Below, piece after piece: positions 1-49,949 of a DNA stretch of 64,000 nucleotides; the stretch's first letter is position 1; the number at the start of each line of letters is the position of its first letter. The DNA lies in IMG/VR virus record IMGVR_UViG_3300030329_005813, positions 1-64,000 of that record; one strand, written 5' to 3'. Position numbers and translations under genes: made by a program. This DNA comes from a virus. Below the pieces are notes generated by a model. The model ran no database searches, was not told the origin of the DNA, and saw only the letters and a program-made list of their open reading frames with translations.

Positions 1-442
1 CATCCTTTACTACAACAGCATAATATCTTTTCCTACGGCGAGTAACGCCTTTATATTTGGAGCGCGTGCCATATAGAGATCCTTTCTTGGCACGAGGCTT
101 TCTAGAGTTCATCGAATTTTGACTATTGGTAACAAGTCGAAGGTTTTCTCTACGGTTATCTAGGCCATTACCATTGATATGATCCGTGTGTTCCTTCCGC
201 GTGAGCGGCCGACCAATTATTCTCTCCATAATAACTCTATGTAACCTTTTTGTTTGGCCATGATGATAAGGACTATTAGCTGCGTGCTCCTTATTGACCC
301 AGCACTTAGCGTAACACGTATAGTGATCACCGTGACGTTTTCTATTGCTATCGCAGAGTCTCCAAGACCACTGCGCCAAGTCGGCATCTTCATCACTGAT
401 AATCGCGACGCTTCCTTTGGTAAGTTTGATATCAATAGCCAT
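1..442 (-). CDS. HNH (HNH-AP2 type) homing endonuclease, 3'-truncated by window edge; not in ORF track
   Basis: Manual translation from ATG at 442 (GGAGG RBS upstream): MAIDIKLTKGSVAIISDEDADLAQWSW...LHRVIM...TDHINGNGLDNRRENLRLVTNSQNSMN...SKYKGV. Contains the HNH motif and the start of an AP2-like domain. Confidence 0.85.
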   Translation of the reverse strand, partial: MAIDIKLTKGSVAIISDEDADLAQWSWRLCDSNRKRHGDHYTCYAKCWVNKEHAANSPYHHGQTKRLHRVIMERIIGRPLTRKEHTDHINGNGLDNRRENLRLVTNSQNSMNSRKPRAKKGSLYGTRSKYKGVTRRRKRYYAVVVKD

Positions 443-632
443 ATCTTTCCTCCATATATAGCTTAACACACAGCGCTTAAAAAGTCAAATTCGAATTTCA
501 TATTTTGGGATTTTTCTGTGGGTGTAGTGAATGTATCAGCCCCGCTTTGCGCCGTACCGCCATATGGTACTTACATCCCGGTATATGGGGGGGAGGGGGG
601 GAGGAGGTACCGTCATAGTCTAGTTTCTTCCT

Positions 633-1329
633 TGTGGAAAACAGTTATCCATAGCATTATCGAGCAGTCTTATATAAGAGTTTAAACCTTTGTTATCATC
701 CTGGGGATAAAGTTATCCCTAGTCTATCCATAGGATAGTGAAAATAGAGATGCCCTAACCATCGGCCTTTTATTAAGGTTTGGGTAAGGGAGGGATAACC
801 TTTATTATCCGCTGTGGATAGCTGGGGATAGTTTATTAATAACCTTAGCCTCCACCATATATCCCTTGGAAGGCCAACAATGCCGTAGCTGTGGACAACC
901 TGTGTATAAGCTGTGGGTTATTTGGTTGCAGCTATTCAACATATGCAAGAGCAGCATAGCCTGTCAACGGTAGGCCTGCAACCATATGCATAAATTAAAG
1001 ATATCGAGCCTGTGGATAAAGTAATTAACAAATCGCTAGAGTGGAGTAAGAAACTTTATTATCGTCGGAAGGGGTTATCCATAGCTTTATCCATATGTTA
1101 AATAAAAAAGGTTGTAGGCCGATAATGCCGTGGTTATGGATAACATAGGGTTGGTTGACAGGAGGGTTGTGTGTATGTATATTATCACCCACCCATTCTC
1201 AGCCTTTCTCCACCCCTATCCCTAACGTATCCTAACTCCCTTCTCTCTCCTCTCTATTCCTTCTCTATGAATACTTTCTCAGTGTTTTTATAAAAAGAAA
1301 GGGCCTAACTGACTTTATCTTGTGGATAA
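633..1329. promoter_or_regulatory. Cluster of DnaA-box-like 9-mers (oriC-like) in a ~1-kb non-coding region
   Basis: Perfect TGTGGATAA at 1011 and 1321; TTWTNCACA-consensus matches at 633 and 901; 1-mismatch boxes at 645, 702, 813, 890, 1075, 1087, 1135; several 2-mismatch boxes; AT-rich tract ~1270-1410. Confidence 0.75.
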
Positions 1330-1455
1330 ACCAATCAGACCCTACTAGTCTCATTATGCTGAATATGTTATTAATTCTTTATATTTTCTTTATATTTCTT
1401 TAGTCTCTATGTAAATGCTTGACATGTCAATGAAACGTCTTCCCACTTCATCCCA

Positions 1456-1674
1456 TTATAACCCACTTTGTTCCCTAATTCCCCCTTGTGGACTGATTGG
1501 GGACAAGAGACTATGTGATATAATAATTGTTTTATCAAGTCTCAAACTATAAACCGCATACGTTGTATATTGTTTGGGGAGTCCCGAAACATTTATTTTC
1601 TTGAATATGCATAGTCCTCCCTTTTCGCCGGTTTTGTATCGGAAAGACAACAATTGTCCTACTTTAAACTTCAC
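1456..1674 (-). CDS. Small SH3/KOW-like phage protein (MKFKVGQLL...)
   Basis: GTG start overlaps the upstream stop; family-type N-terminus. Confidence 0.55.
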   Translation of the reverse strand: MKFKVGQLLSFRYKTGEKGGLCIFKKINVSGLPKQYTTYAVYSLRLDKTIIISHSLLSPISPQGGIREQSGL

Positions 1675-1879
1675 TCTCGTCTTCCTGTGGATTGATGTGG
1701 ATAAGCGCTTTGGGTAGATATGCCATTGTGCATCCGTTGTTAAACCAATAAACGTCAATAACCGGGGTGCCACGGTAAGTTTCGCGGGTGTGAGCAACGA
1801 TGCCCCTTTGGGCCTGTGAAAGGTCACGGCCTAGTGCTGACGTCTTCGTGGCGACCAATTGTCCTCTTTCAAACTTCAT
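1664..1879 (-). CDS. Small SH3/KOW-like phage protein (MKFERGQLV...GIV...VYW)
   Basis: ATGA coupling at 1876-1879; family motif. Confidence 0.65.
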   Translation of the reverse strand: MKFERGQLVATKTSALGRDLSQAQRGIVAHTRETYRGTPVIDVYWFNNGCTMAYLPKALIHINPQEDESEV

Positions 1880-2079
1880 TCTTGCATCTCGCCTGCTCGC
1901 ACCAAGGTTAACGCTGACTTGGGATAGCTTGCATAGTCTTGCGACTTGAGCCAAAAGACTCGCGTGTACCCGGCGAAACCTTCGGAATCGGGATTAACAA
2001 CAATACCACGTCCCTCTGCAAACCGTGGTGGGTCTGAATACTTTAAGTTGGCACGAACCAAATCTCCTGCTTTAAACAC
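1876..2079 (-). CDS. Small SH3/KOW-like phage protein
   Basis: FKAGDLV...GIVV...VFW motif. Confidence 0.7.
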   Translation of the reverse strand: MFKAGDLVRANLKYSDPPRFAEGRGIVVNPDSEGFAGYTRVFWLKSQDYASYPKSALTLVRAGEMQE

Positions 2080-2272
2080 TGTTATTCTCCCTCATCCCTC
2101 TTAGGTGAATGTGATATACCCATTCCGTGGTCATATCCTGAAAGAAATATACATTCACGTTTCCCTCCCTGTCCATATCAATAACAAGACCTCTATCAAA
2201 GGGATTATTATATACATTGATCAATTGTCCGCGTTTGAAGCGCTTGATGCCTAAGCTATGAGTGGTCCGCAT
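2072..2272 (-). CDS. Small SH3/KOW-like phage protein
   Basis: FKRGQLI...GLVI...VYF motif. Confidence 0.65.
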   Translation of the reverse strand: MRTTHSLGIKRFKRGQLINVYNNPFDRGLVIDMDREGNVNVYFFQDMTTEWVYHIHLRGMRENNSV

Positions 2273-2468
2273 CCTTCACCCTTATAATGCTGTGTGATGT
2301 GAAAGTAATTGTGTTTCCCTTTGCTAACCAATATACATCATACCTTGAATACTTCTCATTGTATGCCTGATAACTCTTTCTTACAACAATCCCCAACCTC
2401 TTTGGTATACCACGGGGCTCACCGGTGAGCTTCTTGATGTATACCAACTCTCCTGGTTTGAACTCCAT
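2256..2468 (-). CDS. Small SH3/KOW-like phage protein
   Basis: FKPGELV...GIVV...VYW motif. Confidence 0.7.
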   Translation of the reverse strand: MEFKPGELVYIKKLTGEPRGIPKRLGIVVRKSYQAYNEKYSRYDVYWLAKGNTITFTSHSIIRVKDADHS

Positions 2469-2710
2469 TATTCAATTCCTGAGATTGTATGCAAAAGCAG
2501 TGTTGAGAATGAACCAATCTTCATGTGTCTTAACCAATAAACATAAGCTATATCCTCACCTTTGTGCTCAAAACCCACGACAATCCCCTTGTCTCCGTTC
2601 TCCAACTGAATCAATTCTTTGGACATTGGGTAGCCAAACGGCGTCATCCAAAACTCTACTTTTGCCGTTACCAAGTCGCCAATCATAAAATTCTTCCGTT
2701 TTATGCTCAT
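2468..2710 (-). CDS. Small SH3/KOW-like phage protein
   Basis: FMIGDLV...GIVV...VYW motif. Confidence 0.7.
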   Translation of the reverse strand: MSIKRKNFMIGDLVTAKVEFWMTPFGYPMSKELIQLENGDKGIVVGFEHKGEDIAYVYWLRHMKIGSFSTLLLHTISGIE

Positions 2711-2764
2711 TGTGTATACCTGATGTGTTGTTCGGGGAAAAAAATGGCGCTGAAACCTTTGGTT

Positions 2765-2977
2765 CTATCTCGTATTTTCCACAACTTTTGTCAACTTATA
2801 AATATTAACCCATTCGGCGGGCCTGAACATCCTGGGCGGCCATAACACCCAAGTAACCTGGATTTTCATTCCATCTTGATCTAAAACAATTCCTAACGTT
2901 GCGCGGGGTGGCAAAACATCCTCGTGACGAACCATATCACCTTTGTTGAATTTGTGAGATTTGAGGCCGTCTTTCAA
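2765..2977 (-). CDS. Small SH3/KOW-like phage protein
   Basis: FNKGDMV...GIVL...VTW motif. Confidence 0.7.
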   Translation of the reverse strand: MKDGLKSHKFNKGDMVRHEDVLPPRATLGIVLDQDGMKIQVTWVLWPPRMFRPAEWVNIYKLTKVVENTR

Positions 2978-3177
2978 GATACCAACTCAACTTCGTTTAC
3001 GGTGGGACGAACCTTGCAAACTGGGTCCATTAACCAATAAACGTTCAATATAACTGTGTTATCGTCGGTGACTAACTCATCTCCGAAAACTTTGAGATCT
3101 TTTACCAAGCCTAAAAAGTGAGGGCTTCCATTTCTTAGGCGTACAATGCTGCCTTTCTTAATCTTCATTTTCATCAC
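2974..3177 (-). CDS. Small SH3/KOW-like phage protein
   Basis: IKKGSIV...GLV...VYW motif. Confidence 0.65.
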   Translation of the reverse strand: MMKMKIKKGSIVRLRNGSPHFLGLVKDLKVFGDELVTDDNTVILNVYWLMDPVCKVRPTVNEVELVS

Positions 3178-3376
3178 AATACACTCTTAGGCTTTGTGCG
3201 CCGTGGGTCGCAACGTAAGGCGTTTTCTCATAAGGGTGTTCAAACCACAATACTTTCCAACCAGTCCAATCAAATAACTTAAGTTGCTCCTCGGTGTCGG
3301 GAACAACGCCACGACAAAGCAAAATCCCCTTGAATCCAAATATATCCTTAAGTTTAACCAAGTCTCCTACTTTCAT
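3158..3376 (-). CDS. Small SH3/KOW-like phage protein (MKVGDLV...)
   Basis: GGAG RBS before ATG 3376; family motif. Confidence 0.7.
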   Translation of the reverse strand: MKVGDLVKLKDIFGFKGILLCRGVVPDTEEQLKLFDWTGWKVLWFEHPYEKTPYVATHGAQSLRVYCDENED

Positions 3377-3498
3377 AAGATTCAAACTCCAATAAATCAA
3401 AATCGTTTTTTAAGGCCGTTTTCGCTTCCGTGGCGGCCTTGGGCGGCTCTGATGAGTCCTTACCCTCTCGAAGCCCTGGAGGGCTCTCTAGGGCGTCT

Positions 3499-3765
3499 CT
3501 AGGGCTCGCTAGATGCCTTCTCGGGTGTCTGGTCCGCTGGAGCACCGACCCACAAAAGGTGGGCGGGTCTGACGGCTACATCGCCAACGTTGGGGAAGGA
3601 CGCCAAATAACCAGTATAATACTGATCTTTGTCCTCGCCCTTCCAAAACTCAACTTCGGCCTTGATAATTCCAATGCCGTATTCGTCAAACATACTATGT
3701 CGGACCAACCTACCTTTATAGGGGGTATTCGAATCGGTGACACCCCAACCTGAGCCTTTACTCAC
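3499..3765 (-). CDS. Small SH3-like phage protein
   Basis: GTGA coupling at 3762-3765; GRLVRH...GIGII motif. Confidence 0.55.
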   Translation of the reverse strand: MSKGSGWGVTDSNTPYKGRLVRHSMFDEYGIGIIKAEVEFWKGEDKDQYYTGYLASFPNVGDVAVRPAHLLWVGAPADQTPEKASSEP

Positions 3766-3932
3766 TTTAAACCTCCATTTTGCTTCGCTACACGACAAAA
3801 CCGAACGTCTTCGCGTGATGCTTCGCCGTAATCACACCAAAAAACCAAGATTTTATCTCCCTTTTGGTCCTCTAGGGCGACGCCGATAGCGTCTGACCCA
3901 TTCCATTTAATCAAATCACCCTTTCTAAGCAT
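3762..3932 (-). CDS. Small SH3/KOW-like protein, 56 aa (not in ORF track)
   Basis: MLRKGDLIKWNGSDAIGVALEDQKGDKILVFW... Confidence 0.65.
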   Translation of the reverse strand: MLRKGDLIKWNGSDAIGVALEDQKGDKILVFWCDYGEASREDVRFCRVAKQNGGLK

Positions 3933-4141
3933 CTTTTTGTCCTTTGTTAGATAAGACCTTAAGAAGCCGGATCTTCGTCCTCATAGCTTCGCTAAGATCG
4001 AACCAGTAGACCCAAACCCGGCTAGAAGGCGGGCTTTCGTCTTCCATGACGATACCGATGGCATGACTGTAATTGACCAAATCACCCTTTCTAAGCATCT
4101 TTTTGTTCTCTGCCAGATAAAGCCTTGAGAGCCCGGATCTT
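3912..4141. repeat. 64-bp imperfect direct repeat (3912-3975 and 4078-4141) spanning two gene junctions
   Basis: First 29 bp identical (CAAATCACCCTTTCTAAGCATCTTTTTGT); period 166 bp. Confidence 0.9.
3925..4098 (-). CDS. Small SH3/KOW-like protein, 57 aa (not in ORF track)
   Basis: MLRKGDLVNYSHAIGIVMEDESPPSSRVWVYW... Confidence 0.65.
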   Translation of the reverse strand: MLRKGDLVNYSHAIGIVMEDESPPSSRVWVYWFDLSEAMRTKIRLLKVLSNKGQKDA

Positions 4142-4321
4142 GTTGCAGCCGCAGATGGCCGCCACTATCCGGGGGTAACACGCCTTATGAATCGTAATAG
4201 CCAGCTTTCTACAGGCATCTTCCGTGGGTGCCTCTTTTTGGGCCGCGAAGAAGAGATGAAGCACTTCCTCGTCGTCTTCTTCTTCATTAATGGCTTTGAT
4301 CCAGTATTCTACGCTTTTCAT
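4091..4321 (-). CDS. Hypothetical protein (MKSVEYW...)
   Basis: GAGGAG RBS before ATG 4321. Confidence 0.6.
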   Translation of the reverse strand: MKSVEYWIKAINEEEDDEEVLHLFFAAQKEAPTEDACRKLAITIHKACYPRIVAAICGCNKIRALKALSGREQKDA

Positions 4322-4337
4322 AATATCTCCTCTCGAC

Positions 4338-5597
4338 CTAAACCGTGATTTCAAGTACTTTTTCGTGTGTCTTGAAGAAAGGTTGGGTTGCACCGTAAGA
4401 ATCGGTCATCCACATACGCTGACAATTGCTTGGAATAGGCTTTGGAGCGCACATATCGGTAAGAACGATGTGACCATCGAGCTTCTGGCTGTTGACATAC
4501 TCCGTTGGGGCGTTAAAGCAGGTTCCACCGTACATAACACGCTCCCAAGGCTTTTTCTGTCCTTTCTTCCAGGTAAATACGAGATCTTCGTTAACCGTAG
4601 TATCAAAGGGTACAACCACGAACTCGGCATACTTGGCCAAGGCTTCAAGCTCCGAAAAGAAGGCTGCAAGCATCGAATTCGAGACACTACCGGACTGGTC
4701 GATACTAATGGCGATACGGGCAACGCGCTCAGAGCGCTTACCGGCGTGAATGTAGGGGAAACGCCGATTAATACGCTTCACGGTTGAACGCCGATTAGCC
4801 TTTTGGCTGGCTTTAACAAAGGAACGAAGTACCTTTCTCCAATCAACCTTTGAAGTGATGGACTCCATAATGGTCTTCTTCATGCCGGCAGAAACGGAGC
4901 CCCAACCTCGGGTATTGGCTTCTTCGGCGGCCTTCTTGACCATATCCTTAAGGCGCTCCTGGGCGATTTGCTGGTTTGTACCTTCCTCACCGGCTGATGC
5001 CTCGCCCCATCCAGAGTGGTCGTCAAGCGGCTCGGCGTCGCTCATACCGCCGCCCGAACCTTCACTATCGGAATCGCCTGAACCTTCGCCAGAGCCACCG
5101 CCCCCGCCGCCCTCTTTCTCTTCAAGAATGAGTTTGTAATAGGCTTCTGCGGATAATCCCTCTGGAAGGTCGGCGAACGTGTCGCGGCCTGGAATGAGAG
5201 CCGAAGGCGGCAATTCATCAGGAATATGGGTGTTAATCGCGAGATCCATCGCGATGTTCCACGTCTTGTTGATACCCTCTTCTGGCTTTCTGGTGGTACA
5301 ATGCCCATAAATCAGGTGGTAGAACTCGTGCATCAAGATACCACGAACCCACCGATACTTATTGTTGGCGTTCTCCTTGGTTTCTCCGCACTCTTTGATC
5401 ATACGCTCCATAAAATCTGGATTATAAACCAGTTCAAACCGGCCTTCTTCGGTAACGGTAACGCCAGCGGTAGGAACCGTGGAACAAGCTCGTTTATCGA
5501 GCCGGCGCGAAAGAGCGGCGAAGAACGGCTCATCAGAGAGAAGCCGATGAGTGTGCATGTTGAGGTTGAAAGTAGCTTTTGGGGCTTTATCAGACAT
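4338..5597 (-). CDS. HExxH metallopeptidase-like domain plus vWA domain protein (DUF2201-like), partner of MoxR AAA ATPase
   Basis: HEFYH, WNIAMDLAIN, Gly/Ser linker, MIDAS DQSGS, GGT and LTD motifs; start moved to MSDKAP because the upstream extension overlaps a promoter. Confidence 0.85.
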   Translation of the reverse strand: MSDKAPKATFNLNMHTHRLLSDEPFFAALSRRLDKRACSTVPTAGVTVTEEGRFELVYNPDFMERMIKECGETKENANNKYRWVRGILMHEFYHLIYGHCTTRKPEEGINKTWNIAMDLAINTHIPDELPPSALIPGRDTFADLPEGLSAEAYYKLILEEKEGGGGGGSGEGSGDSDSEGSGGGMSDAEPLDDHSGWGEASAGEEGTNQQIAQERLKDMVKKAAEEANTRGWGSVSAGMKKTIMESITSKVDWRKVLRSFVKASQKANRRSTVKRINRRFPYIHAGKRSERVARIAISIDQSGSVSNSMLAAFFSELEALAKYAEFVVVPFDTTVNEDLVFTWKKGQKKPWERVMYGGTCFNAPTEYVNSQKLDGHIVLTDMCAPKPIPSNCQRMWMTDSYGATQPFFKTHEKVLEITV

Positions 5598-5640
5598 CAA
5601 GTAGACTCCAGAGTCGGGAACTTCCCCGACCATTACAGTA

Positions 5641-5701
5641 ATTATACACCCAAACGCCAACAAAGTCAAGATTTTTCTGCGCCCTTGACAATCTCTTTAC
5701 A
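5641..5701 (-). promoter_or_regulatory. Sigma70-like early promoter with inverted tandem upstream element
   Basis: TTGACT-17bp-TATAAT; CTTGACA-ATCT-CTTTACA on + strand at 5684-5701. Confidence 0.8.
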
Positions 5702-27053: not shown

Positions 27054-28625
27054 TCAACTCTCCAAGATAGAGTAGCCCGTCATAATAAGGGTTCCAGCAG
27101 CAGAAGCGGCGTTCTGTAAAGCTACCTTTGTAACTCTAGCCGGATCTATGATTCCTTCTTCGATCATATCGCACTCTCGCTCCTCGCCAAAGTTAAACCC
27201 TCTAGAACCATCTAAAGATTGCACTATATTCTCAATGATATCTGCGCTAAGTCCTGCGTTCTTTGCCATTTGTCGAATCGGCTCTCTGATAGCCTCCGCA
27301 ACGCACTGAGCGCCAATCGCCTGATCTTGATTATCAACCTTAACTTCTAGATCTTTGAGAACTCGCAACAAAGCTACCCCACCGCCAGGGACGATTCCCT
27401 CTAGCTGCGCTGCCTTAACGGCCTCTAAAGCATCTTCTATGCGATGCTTCTTTTCTGTCATCTCTACTTCAGTTGCGGCTCCGACACGAATAACGGCAAC
27501 ACCAGAGGCGAGGCGCGTAATACGCTCTTGAATCTTTTCGCTCTCCGGGAAGGTTCGGGCTTCATCAAGCTCGACCTTAAGAGCCTCGATCTTTTCGTTG
27601 ACTGCGTTTTCGTCTCTGCCACCATCAACAACTGATGTTTGATACTTGCTAATCTCAACCTTAGAGCAAGTTCCTAAATGTTCCAGCTTAACTTCTTCTA
27701 GCTTTAAACCTGAGTCTTTGGTGATATAAGAAGCTCCCGTGGCCAGACAAAGATCACCCAGAATGTTTCGGCGCTCTGCACCATATCTAGGAATCTTAAC
27801 CGCAGCCACTTTCATTGAGCCGCGAACCGTATTCATAATTAAGGCCGCCAAGGCTTGACCTTCCACCTCGCTGGCGACAATAACTAATGGCTTATTCTCG
27901 CGAGCTACCTGCTCAAGTACTGGGAGGATATCTTGCACATTCTCTATCTTCGCGTCGGCAACAAGAACAAACGCATTTTCATACGACACTACACCTCGGC
28001 GCTCGTCAGTAATAAATGCTCCTGCTGCATAACCTCCCGGGAAGCTAAACCCTTCCTTAAACTCTAGAGAAGTTTCGGCTGTCCCGGCTTCTTCAATAGT
28101 AATCGATCCATCCTTTCCAACACTATCAACCGCGTTAGAAATGAGGGTGCCAATAGAAATGTCGTTATTGGCCGAAATAGAGGCGATATGCTCTATGTCT
28201 TCCTTACTTTGGATAGGAGTAGCCAAATCAGTAAGGCGCTCAACAATCTCCTCTGTTGCCTTATCAATGCCACGTTTAATTTCAACGACGCTTGAGTCGT
28301 TAACTAAGTGTTTATGTGCATTTTTAAGAATAGCTCTAGCCAATACCGTAGCTGTAGTTGTTCCATCGCCAGCACTAATATTGGTATTTTCAGATGCTTG
28401 CCTAATCACTTGTGCGGCGGCGTCCATAAAAGGGTCTTCTAAAATTACAAACCTGGAAACAGTCACGCCATCCTTGGTAATAAATGGGGGCTTTCCTTTC
28501 TGCCTCAGGAGAACATTTCTCCCTTTGGGTCCGAGCGTACTAGCTACGTTATCGGCGAGCACATCTACACCTTCAATGATCTTCTTGTGCAGAGAAGAAC
28601 CATTATCATATCTTACTGTCAACAA
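27054..28625 (-). CDS. groEL: Chaperonin GroEL
   Basis: TLGPKGRNV, TKDGVTV, AGDGTTTATVLA, GIVPGGG, GIIDP. Confidence 0.96.
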   Translation of the reverse strand: MLTVRYDNGSSLHKKIIEGVDVLADNVASTLGPKGRNVLLRQKGKPPFITKDGVTVSRFVILEDPFMDAAAQVIRQASENTNISAGDGTTTATVLARAILKNAHKHLVNDSSVVEIKRGIDKATEEIVERLTDLATPIQSKEDIEHIASISANNDISIGTLISNAVDSVGKDGSITIEEAGTAETSLEFKEGFSFPGGYAAGAFITDERRGVVSYENAFVLVADAKIENVQDILPVLEQVARENKPLVIVASEVEGQALAALIMNTVRGSMKVAAVKIPRYGAERRNILGDLCLATGASYITKDSGLKLEEVKLEHLGTCSKVEISKYQTSVVDGGRDENAVNEKIEALKVELDEARTFPESEKIQERITRLASGVAVIRVGAATEVEMTEKKHRIEDALEAVKAAQLEGIVPGGGVALLRVLKDLEVKVDNQDQAIGAQCVAEAIREPIRQMAKNAGLSADIIENIVQSLDGSRGFNFGEERECDMIEEGIIDPARVTKVALQNAASAAGTLIMTGYSILES

Positions 28626-32580: not shown

Positions 32581-32922
32581 TTAAAAGCTAGAATCTTCTT
32601 TTTCTAGAATATCGAAAATACTTTCTATCTCTTCTTGGTCTAGCAGTAACTTATCAAGTGTTTCGCTTCCTTCATTAATTAGTGCCCTAGACTTTTTAAT
32701 TTTCTTTTTTTGCTTAGAATTCTTTTGCTTCTCTGCTTTCAATTTGTCAACGAAGTTTAGAATATCTGGATCTTGCATTAGGTATCCTGTTAAGATCCCT
32801 CTAAAGAACTTTGCTTGTGATAGACCGTCGTGCGATAATCTTATCTTTAAGTCTGCATATCTTTTATCAGAATCATAAAAGACAATCTTTTTCTTTAGAG
32901 TACCGTAAACTGGATCACTCAT
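32581..32922 (-). CDS. Hypothetical protein
   Basis: ORF track. Confidence 0.6.
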   Translation of the reverse strand: MSDPVYGTLKKKIVFYDSDKRYADLKIRLSHDGLSQAKFFRGILTGYLMQDPDILNFVDKLKAEKQKNSKQKKKIKKSRALINEGSETLDKLLLDQEEIESIFDILEKEDSSF

Positions 32923-33941
32923 AGGCCGTTCCTATGAATATGCGTCGAGCTTTCGACTCGACCTGAGGATGTTTGGCGAATAAACTTTCTTTTCGCTTGT
33001 AGGTCTATGATGCTTTTGGCACCTGTATAAGATAAGCCGCTGCGAATACCAGTTTCTAGATTAGCTAAAACCTGTTTTATTTTGCCTTTATACCTCACTC
33101 GGTGCGAGACTCCTTCCAAAGAAGAGTGTTTACCTCTCCAATCCTGTTGAGCCTCTTTGCTGGCCATGCCTCGATAAGTTTTATAAAATTTGCCGGTATC
33201 ATCGGTTTTTAACTTACCTGGGGTCTCATCTGTTCCGGCCAGCAGTGAACCGAGCATAACAAAGTCTGCACCAGCTGCAAGAGCTTTTACAATATCTCCA
33301 CTATTTCTAATTCCACCATCAGCAATCAAGGTGGCATCCCTCGTCGAACGCGAACAATCTAGAATAGATTGAAAGGTTGGGACGCCATGGCCGGTCTGAA
33401 TCCGGGTAGAGCAAATTGATCCGCCACCAATTCCGACTCTGATTGAATTTGCTCCCCAGTCTGCTAGACTATCGAAGCCCTCAAGAGTGGCCACGTTTCC
33501 AGCCATAATATGTATAGAGTCACCAAATGTTTTTCTCAATGTCTCTAGAGCATATCTCACATTACAGTGGTGTCCGTGAGCCACATCAATACAAAGCATT
33601 CCGGCTTTGCCTTTTTTTACGAGTGCCTGGGCTCTTTCGAGAAAATCACCTGTGGCACCGATGGCGGCGCCGACGATGCATAGATTTTCATCTGCTTTGC
33701 GAACCATTTTAACTTGTTCTTCGATACTATTATAACGATGAATAATACCAAGACCACCTTCACGATACATAGCCATAGCCATCTTTTCTTCTGTCACAGT
33801 GTCCATCGGAGAAGATATAATGGGAATGTCATAATAAACTGAATTTTCCAGATAAGATGAAATACTCACCTCTTTCCTGGAAGTTATTTCAGAATACCTA
33901 GGCTCTAGTAAGACATCATCAAAACTAAGAGCTAGATCCAT
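32919..33941 (-). CDS. guaB: IMP dehydrogenase / GMP reductase (no CBS domains)
   Basis: [41 protein letters not shown]. Confidence 0.88.
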
Positions 33942-34221
33942 ACTTATCCTCCAAATGCTTTTTAAAGTCTTCTGTGATCTTTTTGGCTTTTTCCCAGCAT
34001 TCTGGGCAATAGAGGCGAACAATCTCTTCTTCACCGTGGATAACAACGCTCCAAGTTAAAGCCATTTGTTTATTGCCTTTGTCAAATGGCTTTTCACAAG
34101 TTAGGCACTCATCTGGAATCTTTCCAAACAGGGCTATCTTACTTTCTAGTTCTCTATTACCTTCAGACTTCGCCTCTTTCATGGCTGCTCTCCGTTGTTC
34201 TCGATTCATCACACCCCCCAA
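33925..34221 (-). CDS. Small C4 zinc-ribbon protein
   Basis: CLTC...CPEC. Confidence 0.6.
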   Translation of the reverse strand: MGGVMNREQRRAAMKEAKSEGNRELESKIALFGKIPDECLTCEKPFDKGNKQMALTWSVVIHGEEEIVRLYCPECWEKAKKITEDFKKHLEDKYGSSS

Positions 34222-34730
34222 ATCGAACGATGGGAAGGTGTAGTAGAACTTTTTGGAGTCGTCGGTGCTTCTTTCTTATCGGTGCTTCCTAGCGCACCAT
34301 CGCCGCGATCACTAAGAGTAATCGGATACCAGTCATAAAGATTGTCATCTGGACTCTCCACAAATCGTGCCGGGACAACCGGGATAAGAACAGCCTGGGC
34401 GATTTTGTCACCCGGGTTAATAGTCCAGGAATGATCTGATAAGTTGTGAAGGTTAACAAATACCTCTCCATCATATCCCGAATCAACAACACAAGCACCG
34501 ACCAACCACTTCTTCTTAGCGGCATTACCAGACCTGTTCATGATTTGAAGCATATATCCATGCGGGATTCCAAACTTCAGTCCTGTTGGAATAATTTTAC
34601 TTTCGCCCTTTTCAATATGTAAAGAGGTGCCATTGTGCGAGTTATAACATAGATCCAAGCCTGCATCAGATGGATTTGCTCGCGTTGGACGATGCTTGCA
34701 GTGTGGCATACAATAATATTCTAAAATCAT
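34209..34730 (-). CDS. dut: dUTPase (trimeric)
   Basis: DAGLDL, RSG, VVDSGYDGE, RGDGALGSTD. Confidence 0.92.
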   Translation of the reverse strand: MILEYYCMPHCKHRPTRANPSDAGLDLCYNSHNGTSLHIEKGESKIIPTGLKFGIPHGYMLQIMNRSGNAAKKKWLVGACVVDSGYDGEVFVNLHNLSDHSWTINPGDKIAQAVLIPVVPARFVESPDDNLYDWYPITLSDRGDGALGSTDKKEAPTTPKSSTTPSHRSIWGV

Positions 34731-36065: not shown

Positions 36066-37082
36066 TCAAGCATATAAATCAAATGTTTCTGGGTTATCCG
36101 AGAAATACAAGGTTGTATCTGGAAAAGCTTTCCCAATATAATCTTTCATTTCCTGCTCATTCTGGAATAGGATCTCGGACTTTGAGTGATCGTTGAGGCG
36201 CAATTTCCAAATACCAATTTCACGTAAGATGTCAATTTTATTAAATACGACGTGAGTTGCGCCATTTGTTCTGATTGACTTGTTTAGCATGTCATAATTG
36301 AGCCAGTTACACTGACGTGGGCGACCAGTTGTGGCGCCAAACTCATTACCAACTTTTTGAATCTTCCTAAACACCTCTTCATTAGGCTGAAATGGCTTTG
36401 ACCCGACATAAGTTTCGTAAATCTTGGCCACACCCCACACATCTCGTACTGACTGCGGAGGAAGGCCGTTTAATAAGGCTCCTGCGGACGTACAGTGGCT
36501 TGAAGTGACATATGGGTAATCGCCGTGGTCAACGTCCAGTTGATAGCCCTGAGCGCCTTCAAATAGCGCTACAACAGGCTTCTCATTATAGTGCATCTCA
36601 TGAAAGAAGTCAATAAGATAAGGCTTTAGGACTTCAACGTCTTGGGCGCGTTGACCCTTTCTGGCGTACTTGTCCCTATATGCTGGGCCATTACCAGTTT
36701 TTGTGGTGCCGATCTTCTTATCCCTGCTGTCTTCGGTAAGATGCTGTTCTTGAATAATATGTACATTATTAGATATATAAATCAAACCGTTCGTATCAAC
36801 GCCATTTTCATTCAACAGTTGAATCTCTTTGAAGAAATTGTTGATGTTTAAAACGCAACCGGGTCCAATAATAGACTTTACTCCAAAGAAAACACCAGCC
36901 GGGACAGCGTGTGTAACAAACTTTTTCCCTTTGTGATAGATGGTATGGCCAGCATTTCCGCCACCATTGTAACGAACACAGTGTGTATATTCTCGCTCTC
37001 TCAAAAGATTATGGGTTATCTTCCCTTTACCTTCGTCACCGGCCTGAAGACCGACTACAATATCTACCGTCAAACTGCTCAC
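36066..37082 (-). CDS. purA: Adenylosuccinate synthetase
   Basis: GDEGKGK, GGGNAGHT, EGAQG, HGDYPYVTSS, EFGATTGRPR. Confidence 0.93.
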   Translation of the reverse strand: MSSLTVDIVVGLQAGDEGKGKITHNLLREREYTHCVRYNGGGNAGHTIYHKGKKFVTHAVPAGVFFGVKSIIGPGCVLNINNFFKEIQLLNENGVDTNGLIYISNNVHIIQEQHLTEDSRDKKIGTTKTGNGPAYRDKYARKGQRAQDVEVLKPYLIDFFHEMHYNEKPVVALFEGAQGYQLDVDHGDYPYVTSSHCTSAGALLNGLPPQSVRDVWGVAKIYETYVGSKPFQPNEEVFRKIQKVGNEFGATTGRPRQCNWLNYDMLNKSIRTNGATHVVFNKIDILREIGIWKLRLNDHSKSEILFQNEQEMKDYIGKAFPDTTLYFSDNPETFDLYA

Positions 37083-37126: not shown

Positions 37127-40100
37127 TTACGCAAGTGCTTTCCAAGTTTTATATGCTCGGCCTCGGGTAGAAAATCCCCATTCTAGACTATATTGCGGAC
37201 GAATCATATAGGGCTTATTTATCTGAATGTTATCGCCACCCCTGATATCAACGCCCCAGCACCGCACCCTAATATTAGAAGAGTTGCTGTCTGTTGCTTC
37301 AACAATCAAATAGTCTTTACCGTTCTTTGTCTTTTTAGGTACAATCTTACGAGGAATCAACCAGACAACTTGTAAATCTGGATCGTACTCGGAGATTGGC
37401 GGAATAGCCATAGCACTTAGCTTCGTCATAATCTCAGAATTAATAACTTTATCAATCGGAAACTGCCCGGTTAGGTCGACAAGAGATTGAATCTTCTCTT
37501 CCTCGGTAAAGTCACCTTCGGGAGCATAAAGTTCTATATTGGCCTCAAGGTTCTTAAGCTTTCGAGGACGATCAACAGCAACAGCAGACCAAAAGTGCTT
37601 CAAGCCTGTGAAGCGATTGTCCATAAGCGGTGTCAAGGTGCCTGAGCGAACAAGAACATCAAGCGACTTCTTGTTAAGCTTGGAATAACGTATCTCCTCG
37701 TTAAACAAGAAGCTTTCAACCGAGTCAAAGGGGCGACCGATAAAAATCTGGTCAATAGCGGCGTCCCCAAGGCCCTTGATTGATGTTAGGGGCTGGATAA
37801 GGCGCTTACCGTCTTTGCTAATTTCCCAGACTCTACCGGAAGTATTAATATTTAAGGGCTCAATCTCAAAACCAAACTGCTTGGCGATTGCAATAGCTTT
37901 TTCTTTACGGGTCTCTGGCTCCTTATCGAGAAACGCTGCCATCCAACACTCAGGATAGTAGTTTAGAAGCCAAGCACACTGGAATGAAATCATCGAGTAA
38001 GACACGGCATGTGATTTATTGAAGCCATAGCCAGAGAAGTATTCGAAGGTGTCCCAGAGGCGCTGGGCCTCTTTCTGTGTCATGCCGTGCAGTTCCAAAC
38101 AGCCCTGCATAAACTTCTCATACAAAGCCATCTTAACCTTGGCCGCTTTTCCAGTGCCCTTCTTGGTAAGCACCTTTCGAAGCATATTAGCCTCGTCCAG
38201 AGACAGATCCTTGCCCAACTTATGAGCCAGCATAGCAATCTGCTCTTGGAAAATAAGGAAACCATTCGTCTCCTCGGTCACTTCGCGATGAGTATCGTTG
38301 ATATATCTGACCATACCGGGGCTCTTTCGCGTCTTAACGAAGTCCTTGTCAACGTTCGCCGACAAGGGGCCAGGACGAAAGATAGAAGTGATAGCAGAGA
38401 TATCAATAATGTTTGTTGGCACCACCTGTTTGCAGAGATTCTGTGCTCCGCTTTCTGTGAACTGGAACGTGCCGGCCCACTTACCTGATTGAAATATGTT
38501 TTTGTAGATCTCTTGATCATTAAAGTCGATAACATCAGGATGAAGCATTTGATTGTAATAGTCCTTGACATCGGCGAAAGTTGGCTCTTTAATACCCTTC
38601 TCACGCTTAAGGATGTGCCGGATGGCACCATCAATCATACGCAGGGTAGAGAGGCCCAAGACATCATATTTAATAAAGCCCATAGGCTCCAAGTGCCGAA
38701 CGTTCTGCCCCTCGGACCACGGCGTTTGACGCACGTCCTTCGAGGAGATAAGCGGCATATGATGGTCAAGATTCTCGGCAATCACAACGCCACCAGCGTG
38801 ACGAGAACAGGAACGGACCTGCCCGTATAGAGCATCAACGTGTGTTGCGACATTCGGATACTTAGCCAGGAAAGAGCGAAGAGTCGTTGAGAACTCCTTT
38901 ACTTCCTCGAATGTTGGAGTATACACACCAGCCTTGATACCGTGCTTTTTCTTTGCGGCGGTTGTTGCCTCAAACATCATCTTTCCGGTTACGGCGTTGA
39001 CCTCGTGGAAAGGAATATCATAAAGTTTAGAGATATCCTTGATAAGTGACTTCAACTGGAGTGTATTCCAGTTAGAGATTGGAGCAACAGTGTTGCTGCC
39101 CCACTTCTCCACCAGAAGTTCTTTCAGCTTCATTGGCTCGGCTACATCATAGTCAATATCTGGGTAGTCGGTGGCATCGGAACGAAGGAACCGTGCGAAC
39201 TGAAGTCCATATTTAAGAGGGTCTACCTGGGTAATATCCAAAGCATATGCCACCAGGGAGCCTGCCGCAGAACCACGGCCTGGACCAGTAAGCATCACCT
39301 CGTTGGCGACCTTCGTGATCTCATTCATTGTCAAGAAATACTTGGAGAAACCTCGATCAGAGATAACTGATAGTTCGTGTTCCAAGCGCGAAGTATATTC
39401 TTCGTTTTCGTGCAGATTCTTGGCCCGCAATCCCTCAAAACAAAACTTGCGGAGAGCAGAGTCTGCCGTTTCACCCACAGGAATAACAAAGTCGGGCAGT
39501 CGAACTGTATTATCGGGCATAAACCTTTCGATTCGTTCGTGAGCAATACGATGCGTAGTGGTTATAGAATCAAGAACTAGCTTATCATCATACTCTGTTT
39601 CGCACTGGGCGGAATACTTTTTGTACGACTCCCACATCTGTTCGCCATTCTTAGGATACAACTCGTATCCGATCTCATCGACATCAACGGGAAGTTCCCC
39701 GTTATCAGCCCACGAGGGTCGGCCACGACCAAGCCACCCTAGACGCTTGTAAAGCTCTCTATCCTTCCAGGCGTCGGGGTTCGGATAATGACTGTCAGCC
39801 GTCGAGATCATCTCAACACCAAACTCCTCGCACACTTGGATGATATACTTATTAAGCTCGTGTTGCTCTGGAATGTTGTTCCATTGTAACTCGCCATACC
39901 ATCGATCACCAAAGACTTCCTGCATCCGGCGTGTAACATCACGCATAGCCTCTAGAACGGCTTCAGGGCCTTCCTCACGGTTTTCCCAGTAACACCCAGC
40001 GTAGACCCCACCTAAGCAAGCCGAGGCCGCTATGACCCCTTCAGAGTGCTTAGCGAGCAGGTCATAGTCAAGACGCGGGAAGCGATAAAAATTCTCGGGT

Positions 40101-40579
40101 TCATAGCTCAACGAGATCAACTTAAACAGGTTGTTCAAGCCAGTCTGGTTCTGGGCTAGGAGGACAAGGTGCCTTCGGCGATTTAGGATATTTCTTGCGG
40201 CTTTTTTAGACTCGCCCTCATCCTCGACCGTTGTGCCCTTGGTTTCTGCTTTTTTGGCAGCCCGTGCAGCTTTCTTGTCCTGCATCACGCGATCATAATC
40301 TTCACGCCACTCCGCGATGGAGGGTACAAAGTAAGCTTCCACCCCAAAAATAGGCTTGAAGTCCTTGCCTTCAGCCTGCATCTTCTTGGCGTGCAAAACT
40401 TGCCAAGCTAGACCATTCATATTTCCATGATCCGTAAGAGCTAGCGCAGTCGCACCATTTTCATAGGCAAAATCCATATGCTCTTGTGGATAGCCTAGGC
40501 CATCAAAGATAGAGCCTGCAACGCTGTGTGCGTGCAGACCCACGAATGGAATATCTTTTTTATTCATTGTATCCCCCAA
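37127..40579 (-). CDS. dnaE: DNA polymerase III alpha subunit
   Basis: PHP domain (LHAHS, TDHG, DSHY), GRGSAAGS, PDIDYD, HAGG, KYDVLGL, YGFNKSH. Confidence 0.95.
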   Translation of the reverse strand: MGDTMNKKDIPFVGLHAHSVAGSIFDGLGYPQEHMDFAYENGATALALTDHGNMNGLAWQVLHAKKMQAEGKDFKPIFGVEAYFVPSIAEWREDYDRVMQDKKAARAAKKAETKGTTVEDEGESKKAARNILNRRRHLVLLAQNQTGLNNLFKLISLSYEPENFYRFPRLDYDLLAKHSEGVIAASACLGGVYAGCYWENREEGPEAVLEAMRDVTRRMQEVFGDRWYGELQWNNIPEQHELNKYIIQVCEEFGVEMISTADSHYPNPDAWKDRELYKRLGWLGRGRPSWADNGELPVDVDEIGYELYPKNGEQMWESYKKYSAQCETEYDDKLVLDSITTTHRIAHERIERFMPDNTVRLPDFVIPVGETADSALRKFCFEGLRAKNLHENEEYTSRLEHELSVISDRGFSKYFLTMNEITKVANEVMLTGPGRGSAAGSLVAYALDITQVDPLKYGLQFARFLRSDATDYPDIDYDVAEPMKLKELLVEKWGSNTVAPISNWNTLQLKSLIKDISKLYDIPFHEVNAVTGKMMFEATTAAKKKHGIKAGVYTPTFEEVKEFSTTLRSFLAKYPNVATHVDALYGQVRSCSRHAGGVVIAENLDHHMPLISSKDVRQTPWSEGQNVRHLEPMGFIKYDVLGLSTLRMIDGAIRHILKREKGIKEPTFADVKDYYNQMLHPDVIDFNDQEIYKNIFQSGKWAGTFQFTESGAQNLCKQVVPTNIIDISAITSIFRPGPLSANVDKDFVKTRKSPGMVRYINDTHREVTEETNGFLIFQEQIAMLAHKLGKDLSLDEANMLRKVLTKKGTGKAAKVKMALYEKFMQGCLELHGMTQKEAQRLWDTFEYFSGYGFNKSHAVSYSMISFQCAWLLNYYPECWMAAFLDKEPETRKEKAIAIAKQFGFEIEPLNINTSGRVWEISKDGKRLIQPLTSIKGLGDAAIDQIFIGRPFDSVESFLFNEEIRYSKLNKKSLDVLVRSGTLTPLMDNRFTGLKHFWSAVAVDRPRKLKNLEANIELYAPEGDFTEEEKIQSLVDLTGQFPIDKVINSEIMTKLSAMAIPPISEYDPDLQVVWLIPRKIVPKKTKNGKDYLIVEATDSNSSNIRVRCWGVDIRGGDNIQINKPYMIRPQYSLEWGFSTRGRAYKTWKALA

Positions 40580-48089: not shown

Positions 48090-49949
48090 TTAGGTAAGTT
48101 CACAACTTCCGTTGCCTCCACAAGCTATTTCGCCCTGAAGATCGGTGTTGTCTTCGACTTCAATGACGTTTGTAAGATCGACATCAACAAGTGTTTTCAT
48201 CAACTCTTCATATTCTTCCTTAGTGCAGTCAGAAAAGGGAGCTTGGATATACGATCCTCCGTCGTAGGGAAGCACAGATAAACCATTGTAATGTTTACGA
48301 TTTTCCCACATCCACTCGCCCGTCTCTTCCCACTCGTCTTCTCGAATACTAACGGTAGCACTAACGTTATGCGTGTTTTGTCCTTTGCTATGGCCGGGTC
48401 GAATCCACTCCATACTTACTTTTTTAACGCGCTCAAGCATTGAAATAGCACTTTCTGAGCGTGTAATAGCGTTTTGTGGAGATTTTTGTGGCGCTGATAT
48501 AACAGCCGTGTCGTGAGGGCGGAAATAATCGTCCTCGACCAACTCCGGATGAAACTCCGCTAAATAACCGTAAATAGCTTCGTTTTTCCCCACTCGGATT
48601 CGTCGAATGTAGTAGTCATTGTGCCACGCGTGAATTCCAGACGAAGTACCTAGTGTTAAGGAGGTTGTTCCAGCCGGCTTGACGCAAGTGCAGCGAGCAG
48701 CCGGATTAATTCCTAACAATTTAGCGACTCGTGCATTTTCTTCTTTAACGACCTTGGCAGCTGCCTTCATATCTAGATTTAAAACTTTACCTGAGGCAAT
48801 ACCGGTCATAGAAACACCGATTAAAGCATCTTTTTCTGTTGTACGTTGCCAGACTGGACGAAGATAGTGAAAATCTGTGTAAGAAGCTTGCAAAGTACCA
48901 ATAAAGGCAGCTGCACGAACTCGATTTTCATATTCTTCCTGCGTATCGATGTCTGAAACATTAACTTCGGTTAAATTACAGAACTGAAACGGGCGCAGAG
49001 CAATTTCACAACACGGGTTTGTACCCCAGTCCTTATCATATGTAAAATAGAACCCAGGCTCCCCTGCACCAGAAGCTTTTACGCGGCTCCAAAGGTCAAG
49101 AAAAAACTCTTTTGTGACCATATGTCGCATTAAAGCAACTGAGTTGTTTGCTCGGCCACGTTGGGGGTTTTCCTCCCACCAGGAACCAGCTTTGGCGGCG
49201 ATCATTTCATCGTTATCAGCAGAAAAAAGACTAATAAGAGCAGCGCGACGAATTCCGCCGGCTAAAACAGCGTCAGCTATATAACAAACCATATCATGCA
49301 CTTCAATCGGACGTAGCTTATCGCCATTTTCCTTAGACTCAAGTATACCCTCAAGCTTAACTAAGCACTCTTTAAGAGGCTGCGGGCCTGGGGCCTTACC
49401 ACCAGATGTTACTAATCTGGCTCCCTTAGGTCTAATGTCCGAGAAATCGAAACGAAGCTTAGAAGTACCACGAAAATAAGAAGTTACAAGCGCCTTTACA
49501 GCGTCGGCCCACCCTTCAATAGAGTCACCAATAAGATATCGGTAGGTTCTCTTGCCATTTGGTTTATTAATCTCTGGCAATTTATCAACGTGGTGATTTT
49601 GTACCGAATAACCAACCCCAGTGCCACCAAGCAGCAAAAACATAATCTCACCAAAAGCACGGGTGTCGTCAATGGGCATATAGGCGCAGTTAAAGATTCG
49701 GTTGGGTGCAACTTCGATGGGTTTGCCGCCGAACTGCATCGATCTCATAGAAGGAAGTACTTTTTTCTGATGTACATATTCATATGCTTCTTCGATTTCG
49801 TCTTTTAGTTCCGGATATCTTTTAATATGCATAACTTTATTTCTATCGGCCAGTTCCGTAAATGATTCACGGCGATAAGCCTCTTTCAAGTATCTCGCAT
49901 ATTTCATATGTACTGTAATATCTGATAAAATACTAGCTGCTAATTCCAT
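48090..49949 (-). CDS. nrdJ: Class II (B12-dependent) ribonucleotide reductase
   Basis: FNCAY, GGTGVG, GGIRRAA, TNPCCEI, CNLTE, VKPAGT. Confidence 0.92.
   Translation of the reverse strand: MELAASILSDITVHMKYARYLKEAYRRESFTELADRNKVMHIKRYPELKDEIEEAYEYVHQKKVLPSMRSMQFGGKPIEVAPNRIFNCAYMPIDDTRAFGEIMFLLLGGTGVGYSVQNHHVDKLPEINKPNGKRTYRYLIGDSIEGWADAVKALVTSYFRGTSKLRFDFSDIRPKGARLVTSGGKAPGPQPLKECLVKLEGILESKENGDKLRPIEVHDMVCYIADAVLAGGIRRAALISLFSADNDEMIAAKAGSWWEENPQRGRANNSVALMRHMVTKEFFLDLWSRVKASGAGEPGFYFTYDKDWGTNPCCEIALRPFQFCNLTEVNVSDIDTQEEYENRVRAAAFIGTLQASYTDFHYLRPVWQRTTEKDALIGVSMTGIASGKVLNLDMKAAAKVVKEENARVAKLLGINPAARCTCVKPAGTTSLTLGTSSGIHAWHNDYYIRRIRVGKNEAIYGYLAEFHPELVEDDYFRPHDTAVISAPQKSPQNAITRSESAISMLERVKKVSMEWIRPGHSKGQNTHNVSATVSIREDEWEETGEWMWENRKHYNGLSVLPYDGGSYIQAPFSDCTKEEYEELMKTLVDVDLTNVIEVEDNTDLQGEIACGGNGSCELT

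Follow-up and report, generated by a model that had tools for sequence, protein, structure and literature searches.

How does a phage whose genome encodes no recognizable DnaA come to carry a dense cluster of DnaA boxes, and which process could such a cluster serve? The question arises near the start of the IMG/VR virus record IMGVR_UViG_3300030329_005813, a linear contig of 172,361 bp from a marine phage (CheckV completeness 95%; GC content 40.7%), of which the first 64,000 nucleotides (64 kb) are called the window. An initial annotation, made from the letters of the window, had described about 16 DnaA-box-like 9-mers in a region without genes, and had proposed that the phage either starts its replication there with host DnaA or uses the array as a sink that blocks host initiation. 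The present analysis upholds one part of this proposal, namely that these are DnaA boxes in a real phage genome without dnaA and that they are under selection, as related phages show. An origin and a sink are both candidate functions.

The DnaA-box array and its conservation

The array occupies the largest gap without open reading frames (ORFs) in the contig, positions 436-1455 (1,020 bp), which confirms the gene-free region of about 1 kb. All the sites that had been listed were found in the sequence: two perfect boxes (TGTGGATAA) at 1011 and 1321, two matches to TTWTNCACA at 633 and 901, seven sites with one mismatch (645, 702, 813, 890, 1075, 1087, and 1135), and five sites with two mismatches (713, 724, 805, 823, and 912). 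That list lacks two sites at the 3' end of a small gene: the third perfect box, at 1696, and a 2-mismatch box at 1686. Likewise real are the pairs in inverted orientation (633/645 and 702/713), the triplet 890/901/912 with its 11-bp phasing, and the 29-bp repeat (871-899 and 1116-1144, 79% identical).

The sites form a two-part cluster of strong and weak boxes, with outliers at 1321 and 1686/1696. Cluster A (633-920) contains 633(-), 645(+), 702(-), 713(+), 724(+), 805(+), 813(-), 823(-), 890(-), 901(-), and 912(-), where the sign gives the strand of TTATCCACA; it combines inverted pairs with 2-3-bp spacers and the triplet phased at 11 bp. Cluster B (1011-1143) contains the perfect box 1011(-), the direct pair 1075(+)/1087(+) with a 3-bp spacer, and 1135(-). 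Close pairing or helical phasing is thus seen at 633/645 and 1075/1087 (12 bp each) as well as in the triplet.

The density of boxes is well above background. The window holds 29 sites with up to one mismatch, compared with 15.4 +/- 3.8 in shuffled sequences. In the whole contig, 51 matches to TTATCCACA were found at this threshold, and 12 of them are located between 600 and 1720, where 0.26 would be expected (Poisson P = 1.3e-16). When two mismatches were allowed, the same interval held 22 sites versus 3.8 expected (P = 1e-10). The contig has three perfect boxes, each of them in the array region, and the density elsewhere in the contig equals the shuffle expectation. In GC content (0.42), the array region is not above the phage DNA on either side.

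Relatives of the phage were sought with the DUF2201/VWA protein (4338-5669) as the anchor. The first scan of IMG/VR gave only relatives with about 50% identity, and a scan of metagenomes gave relatives with a 67-81% identical flanking anchor protein, from TARA and other marine samples. Five metagenome relatives hold the conserved anchor block, and the boxes with up to one mismatch were counted in the 1.3 kb before this block. We found 9 boxes, 4 of them perfect, in L132 (P = 2e-8), 10 in L141 (P = 2e-11), 7, including 5 perfect boxes, in L152 (P = 2e-7), 5 in L163 (P = 5e-5), and 4 in L136 (P = 7e-4). In the case of L419, which was found via a ParB-like gene described below, the entire module is present and the array lies outside the P-value scoring. 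The module shared by the six independently assembled relatives consists of a terminator, an antisense promoter (P_anti) with an upstream box, the two-part array, and a block with a G7AG7 run. The contigs of L141, L152, and L163 are long (191 kb in the case of L141) and have the array in their interior.

An alignment of the array region has a mean column identity of 44%. Boxes conserved in position are 645, 702/713/724, 813, 1075/1087, and 1135, and the pair 1075/1087 and the box 1135 are kept in L132, L141, and L152. The other conserved columns belong to the block, the -35 and -10 elements of P_anti, a pyrimidine tract, and the terminator. The central part of the array cannot be aligned between relatives, yet it is rich in boxes. 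The array persists at the syntenic site in non-coding DNA with no more than about 44% identity, which means that the boxes are under selection.

Unbiased k-mer counts, in which the arrays of six phages were compared with the genome background and no motif was assumed, gave the same repeat. The top k-mers are all fragments of gTTATCCACAg, the dominant repeat in the six phages, and TATCCACA occurs 17 times versus 0.11 expected. Among the 42 sites with up to one mismatch, 13 are the perfect TTATCCACA and 11 are TTATCCATA; T4 and A9 are invariant over all 42, and positions -1 and +1 show a preference for G. Spacings of 11-12 bp between neighbours recur in four of the six phages, including L132, L141, and L152. 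The identification of the 9-mers as DnaA boxes is therefore borne out without reference to a known motif. As the consensus is exact, the enrichment strong, and the sites conserved, host DnaA very probably binds the array.

The relatives with about 50% identity also have an ORF-free gap at the syntenic position, in which the G-rich element is shorter, and they lack the box cluster (three boxes or fewer per 1.2 kb). Other repeats occur in these gaps: about 8-10 copies of a TAATACATTTATTAAT-like repeat in L005 (7330-8568) and about 8 copies of (A/G)CTCACA(A/G) within 90 bp in L003 (6748-7426). The syntenic gaps of L001, L006, and L015 contain consensus sigma70 promoters, and tRNAs also occur at the site in this group. 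By this comparison, one sub-clade has the array and others do not. The repeats hint that the syntenic site is an array of binding sites whose binder changes between lineages.

Elements flanking the array

The hairpin at 1289-1343, to the right of the array, is an intrinsic terminator on the minus strand and serves an operon of small paralogous genes. A 19-bp stem (1343-1300) is followed by a U-run (1299-1289), and the predicted free energy is -22.2 kcal/mol, with a z-score of -4.1 on the minus strand versus -0.2 on the plus strand. All mismatches of the stem on the plus strand are C-A, which become G-U pairs in the minus-strand RNA, and compensatory changes were observed at three pairs across four phages. 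The perfect box at 1321-1329 forms the apical loop and part of the stem of this hairpin. In L132, the closest relative, the hairpin has a different inner stem. As the terminator closes the right side of the array, the array should be shielded from read-through of the operon.

The AT-rich tract formerly drawn from about 1270 to 1410 is not a single unit, since the terminator takes up 1289-1343; what stands of it is unstable DNA at 1353-1412. This segment, in the 3' untranslated region of the last paralog, consists of 11-12-nt tandem repeats (TCTTTATATTT) and ranks 8th among the least stable 40-mers of the genome (top 0.03%). It is a candidate unwinding element. The equivalents in L141 and L152 are AT-rich by eye and not conserved in sequence.

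P_anti (1155-1183, plus strand; TTGACA-17-TATATT) is a predicted sigma70-type promoter that would fire rightwards, away from the array and antisense to the operon. It matches 11 of the 12 consensus positions and is identical in form to the promoters most common in this phage. A score of 11/12 is reached by only five plus-strand sites of the genome, and P_anti is the only one among them with TTGACA and a 17-bp spacer. Its -35 element, spacing, and -10 element are kept in L132, L141, L152, and L419. The box 1135-1143 lies 11 bp upstream of the -35 element, and this distance is 10-14 bp across the window, L132, L141, and L152. The 5' part of the putative transcript corresponds to a pyrimidine-rich tract (1190-1265, plus strand; purine fraction 0.20-0.32), in which ACCCC..CCTTATACCACCCCTATCCCTAAC is conserved. 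The transcript is predicted to be C/U-rich, with CCACCCC and CUCCUCUCU motifs, and to run into the terminator and the 3' ends of the paralogs; a plus-strand terminator-like site is present at 1573-1588, inside a gene. A small RNA and an origin-activating transcript are both possible products.

On the left side, a promoter-like sequence (P_left; 460-488, minus strand; TTGACT-17-TAAGCT) is located upstream of an HNH gene. Its -10 element is weak, and good promoters are found at this position in relatives, such as TTGACA-17-TATACT in L419 and TTGACA-17-TACATT in L141. By these predictions, the array sits in a non-transcribed spacer with two flanking promoters that fire outward.

Between the array and P_left lies the conserved non-coding block (505-612), which is near-invariant over about 100 bp in six phages and holds the only G/C runs of seven or more in the genome. 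It contains ATTTTCTGTGTG..GAATGTATC, with a poly-C/G tract, an inverted repeat CCATAT..ATATGG whose 17-nt loop is conserved, a short GC hairpin with some covariation, CCATATGGTACTTACATCCCGGTATATG, CACACACAGAAAATTCCCAGA, and G7AG7 at 587-601. The corresponding positions are 13060-13175 in L132, 11890-12005 in L141, 10903-11018 in L152, 12855-12970 in L163, 8532-8648 in L136, and about 2750-2880 in L419. We considered an RNA structure at 535-612 and rejected it, as the folding was no better than that of shuffled sequences on either strand. A search of IMG/VR with the G-rich element as a DNA pattern returned unrelated matches, the pattern being far too generic. The block may be a site of the ParB-like protein encoded next to it in relatives.

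Positions 1-5000 gave nothing in Rfam at E <= 1. Consensus scans of 470-1455 gave no consensus match for GATC, GANTC, CtrA, IHF (WATCAANNNNTTR), or Fis. A perfect 12-bp palindrome, TTGACATGTCAA, is located at 1419-1430, just 3' of the stop codon of the last paralog, and L132 has a similar one, CTTGACGGGTCAAG; it is a possible operator.

Possible functions of the array

Tentatively, we read the array as an origin-type DnaA assembly region at which the replication of the phage would start. This reading is based on the phased pairs, the two-part layout, and the shielded spacer between divergent promoters, and also on the unstable tract nearby, on the adjacency of a replication-module gene in relatives, and on the fact that neither an initiator nor a loader was detected. 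A search of the whole contig for DnaA domains was empty, which extends the earlier statement that the window has no dnaA gene, and the contig encodes no DnaA domain IV-like protein. No DnaC/IstB-type loader scored above the cut-off in the contig, no beta clamp was detected in it, and no initiator or Rep-type family was detected among the genes scanned, about 5% of the genome being missing from the contig. A search for gp59-type loaders gave zero matches, as it did in the control genomes, and is uninformative for that reason.

According to this reading, host DnaA-ATP would fill the strong boxes after injection, and DnaA would then oligomerise over the phased weak boxes, as in the assembly region of oriC. 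Transcription running in opposite directions from P_anti and P_left would produce negative supercoiling, and the DnaA complex would open nearby AT-rich DNA for the first, origin-dependent rounds of replication. The DnaB-like helicase (49949-51319), DnaG-like primase, DnaE-type polymerase (37127-40579), and single-stranded DNA-binding protein (SSB; 56798-57550) of the phage would take over, and recombination-dependent replication driven by the UvsX-like recombinase (54543-55667) would follow. Titration of DnaA would be an unavoidable side effect as the phage copies accumulate. The readings considered here are not exclusive in this respect, because any DnaA-binding array that is amplified during infection also titrates DnaA.

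In bacterial oriC (R, I, and tau boxes in E. coli; incA, incB, and incC in B. subtilis; PMC8287927, PMC6669920), as in the phage array, consensus boxes and 9-mers with one or two mismatches are densely packed, pairs have 2-3-bp spacers, the layout is two-part, an AT-rich tract lies within about 200 bp, and transcription flanks the region. Unlike oriC, the phage array has no dnaA or dnaN neighbour, no GATC cluster, no clear run of DnaA-trios, and no skew switch, and the box nearest to its AT-rich tract belongs to a terminator hairpin. The basal unwinding system of oriC requires a box and at least three NAN trios (consensus 3'-GAT-5'), with a spacer no longer than 16 nt (mode 13) between them (PMC8287927).

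Several observations weigh against an origin. No clear DnaA-trio array was found; only CTA-CTA(-GTC) is present, 12 nt from the box 1321, and this box sits in the terminator hairpin, which lacks a box in L132. About 210 bp separate the least stable tract from the main array, and both P_anti and the terminator lie in between. Because the relatives with about 50% identity have no boxes, the boxes are dispensable in this phage group. A GC-skew inflection, which the initial annotation had proposed to look for, is absent: the cumulative skew falls monotonically over the whole contig. GC skew cannot separate replication from transcription here, because 92% of the ORFs (196 of 214) are on one strand, the minus strand. 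Host DnaA is not known to be able to load a phage DnaB-like helicase, and UvsX permits replication that is independent of any origin.

Origins that use DnaA as a helper are known from P1 oriR, F, pSC101, and RK2, where one to five boxes stand beside the iterons of the element's own Rep protein. In these elements, as putatively in the phage, a mobile element recruits host DnaA via boxes in its origin. The difference is that DnaA boxes are the dominant repeat in the phage and that it has no detected Rep-type initiator. T4 oriF and oriG and the lambda origin are activated by transcription and have no DnaA-box array. They resemble the phage locus in having a promoter beside or into an unwinding element and in that the phage later turns to UvsX-type recombination-dependent replication. 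They differ in that the predicted P_anti transcript is pyrimidine-rich and would be poor at forming a stable R-loop.

The array could instead be an island of promoters under DnaA control. DnaA is known to act on promoters at dnaA, at nrdAB, and at the DnaA-box clusters of B. subtilis. The boxes would then make P_anti and P_left respond to the level of host DnaA-ATP, so that early or antisense transcription of the phage is coupled to the replication state of the host; in relatives, P_left would drive the ParB-like gene and the genes downstream of it. The joint conservation of the box 1135-1143 and P_anti is what one would expect in this case, as is the two-part array with one cluster per promoter. 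On the other hand, about 20 boxes over 500 bp far exceed the need of one promoter, the conserved block and a distance of more than 140 bp separate P_left from cluster A upstream of it, and P_anti has no known product and no match in Rfam. We regard such promoter control as somewhat doubtful, and the data suggest that it fits as well as an origin or a sink, though it was absent from the initial annotation.

A pure sink, the other half of the original proposal, seems rather unlikely from the sequence features. In this case the array would have no role in cis; hundreds of copies would titrate host DnaA and block host initiation, and genes repressed by DnaA, such as that for ribonucleotide reductase, would be derepressed, as with multicopy datA or DnaA-box clusters. 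E. coli datA and the DnaA-box clusters of B. subtilis titrate or regulate DnaA, and they share with the phage array that a box cluster outside an origin binds many DnaA molecules and can affect neighbouring promoters. The number of boxes, the turnover of their positions between relatives, the patchy presence by sub-clade, which is the pattern of an accessory trait, and the lack of an evident unwinding module would all suit a sink. However, several boxes have kept their position, orientation, and 2-3-bp spacing over a long divergence, and boxes stand in a fixed order relative to the terminator, the promoter, and the conserved block, none of which a pure sink needs. Some box positions are conserved relative to promoters, unlike in datA and the B. 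subtilis clusters. Moreover, the phage array differs from datA in lacking an IHF consensus and in being on a lytic-type phage that would amplify it, and the effect of a sink would come late, after the genome had already been amplified.

The repeats might also be sites for a phage protein, for example the ParB-like neighbour, and merely resemble DnaA boxes. A ParB-like gene follows the module in three relatives, palindrome-like overlaps occur (TTATCC-N5-GGATAG at 805-821), and other repeat types are found at the syntenic gap of more distant relatives. We consider this improbable, since the consensus is the 9-bp DnaA box including its preferred flanks, with almost a third of the sites perfect (13/42), and most boxes are single or direct rather than palindromic. 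In addition, the array is missing from relatives whose ParB-like gene belongs to the replication module, and no protein like DnaA domain IV is encoded in the contig.

The nearest described phage precedent is the injection-stop region (iss) of T5, which has 8 boxes with pairs 3 bp apart and is shared by 25 T5-like phages; its function is unproven (bioRxiv 10.1101/866236). It is the only described case that we found of a multi-box array conserved in a large untranslated region of a virulent phage family; full-text searches of the literature turned up neither a DnaA sink nor an origin using DnaA alone in a virulent phage, and the other papers found were merely Ori-Finder runs on phage genomes. 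By analogy with T5, the boxes would hold the incoming genome at membrane-bound DnaA. Pairs with 3-bp spacers (633/645, inverted; 1075/1087, direct), a location in a large untranslated region, and the nearness of the array to the contig end are points of likeness. Even so, a role of this kind is very improbable. The T5 boxes are framed by IRC/IRD in a terminal repeat; here about 20 boxes have no such frame, the inverted repeats in 400-2000 being short and mostly box-to-box, and no terminal repeat was found in the 172,361-bp contig. In the long contigs of the relatives mentioned above, the array has an internal position, T5-like phages are unrelated to this phage, and the T5 model is itself only a proposal.

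Finally, a fragment of a host oriC, misassembled or recently captured, would account for the oriC-like density of boxes, and the chance of this is negligible. The same module with phage flanks was found in six other assemblies from different samples (TARA and JGI records among them), dnaA, dnaN, and other origin-linked genes are absent, and the GC content of the region does not exceed that of its flanks. Misassembly of a host oriC is ruled out by the presence of the module in six independent marine assemblies, whereas an ancient capture is conceivable.

Wider occurrence and genomic context

In IMG/VR, at least 120 stretches were found with two perfect boxes no more than 30 nt apart. At least 26 of the 120 stretches listed have 6-11 boxes within 1 kb, and none of them resembles the locus in the window. 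Flanking proteins were scanned at six loci. Five of these proved to be genuine phage contigs in which a neighbouring gene was informative. A terminase gene is found 0.5-2.5 kb from the array in L361 (array at about 5921), L368 (8185), L349 (9755), and L383 (9345), and in L352 (3518) the array adjoins a MoxR-AAA/VWA pair, like the pair 3 kb from the array in the window. The flanks of L365 (10022) have only a RecD2-like helicase and a helix-turn-helix protein; a further array is at about 3860 in L333. These unrelated contigs have 7-11 DnaA boxes per kb, which suggests that the DnaA-box array is a recurrent phage element. It is possible, with considerable doubt, that an open-ocean clade of large phages with DnaE-type polymerases and no initiator of their own starts replication at an oriC-like region through host DnaA alone, and that such arrays are widespread and barely described.

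If host DnaA acts here, the start of phage replication or early transcription would be tied to the replication licence of the host, and this dependency could be exploited as resistance via variation or regulation of host DnaA. It would also help to explain how DNA synthesis starts in DnaE-type phages without a recognised initiator, loader, or clamp. As the module is kept in assemblies from TARA and other ocean samples, environmentally common phages are concerned, and the module is a target short enough to clone. The locus also gives a caution for the use of origin-prediction tools on phages: a perfect box beside AT-rich DNA can be a terminator hairpin.

The ParB-like gene follows the block and P_left in L141 (12081-13283), L152 (11171-12322), and L419 (3001-4158). 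In the contig of the window, which breaks inside the HNH gene at that place, it was not found. Its product, about 380 amino acids (aa) long, has 85 database clusters and no Pfam family, and is a core protein of this marine phage group. In the AlphaFold model (mean predicted local distance difference test score, pLDDT, 90.6), residues 64-165 match the ParB/Srx fold. Foldseek gave Noc, KorB, and ParB (E = 2e-3 to 2e-2), and VIA-align gave KorB (Z = 7.4; root-mean-square deviation 2.9 A over 96 residues), sulfiredoxin (6.9), and ParB-N (6.3), these Z values being middling. An invariant DGGGR motif is consistent with this fold, and no partner ParA was found. In L296 (4001-5131) and L420-L422, the gene is located in the replication module between gp32 and UvsX, and in L292-L295 it is preceded by tRNAs or other genes. 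Box arrays are absent from all of these loci (L292-L296 and L420-L422), so that the protein does not require the boxes. Guilt by association through this neighbour gives a weak tie between the array and replication.

The phage is far from everything in the phage record collection, as judged by sequence similarity: a nucleotide search of positions 1-3000 against 50,697 phage records gave zero matches, and its DnaE is at most 30% identical to that of any phage among the matches listed. An exonuclease gene also belongs to the replication genes of the contig, a DnaG-type zinc ribbon is encoded at 97.7 kb, and class II ribonucleotide reductase and thymidylate synthase are present as well.

The HNH homing endonuclease gene (1-441, minus strand; PF13392, E = 1e-11) runs off the start of the contig, and it remains incomplete when the contig ends are joined. 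On the other side of the array, a tandem family of at least 12 small paralogs (57-100 aa, about 70 aa typically) occupies 1456-4100 on the minus strand, with the motif K-x-G-D/E-L-V ... G-I-V ... V-x-W. The last member (1456-1674, minus strand; repeat D7) has a GTG start at 1674 that overlaps the preceding stop, and a 2-mismatch box-like 9-mer is found at 1498 in its 3' part. The last codons of the penultimate member (1664-1879, minus strand) hold the perfect box 1696-1704 and the 2-mismatch box 1686-1694. Pfam and PHROGs gave no informative family for the small paralogs, for the neighbours of 100-280 aa, or for ten genes at the far end of the contig. A similar array of paralogs is located upstream of the box region in relatives (for example, 8217-10766 in L141).

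An isocitrate lyase (52873-54114) shows 72-76% identity to many Bacillaceae and assorted metagenome-assembled genomes among the matches listed. It was considered as a clue to the host and dropped, as a similarity spread in this way carries no information on the host. Together with a GroEL-type chaperonin (27054-28625), it is likely an auxiliary, host-derived gene. A purine-interconversion module comprises a 338-aa adenylosuccinate synthetase, an IMPDH/GMP-reductase-like gene, and a dUTPase/dCTP-deaminase-like gene (36066-37082, 32919-34046, and 34209-34730). The 338-aa protein bears a PurZ-type PHROG label, and the idea of a Z-genome was rejected because PurA matched it at E = 1e-57, versus 1e-15 and 7e-11 for solved PurZ structures. 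The second-largest ORF-free gap of the contig (14195-15006, 812 bp) is located near tRNA genes.

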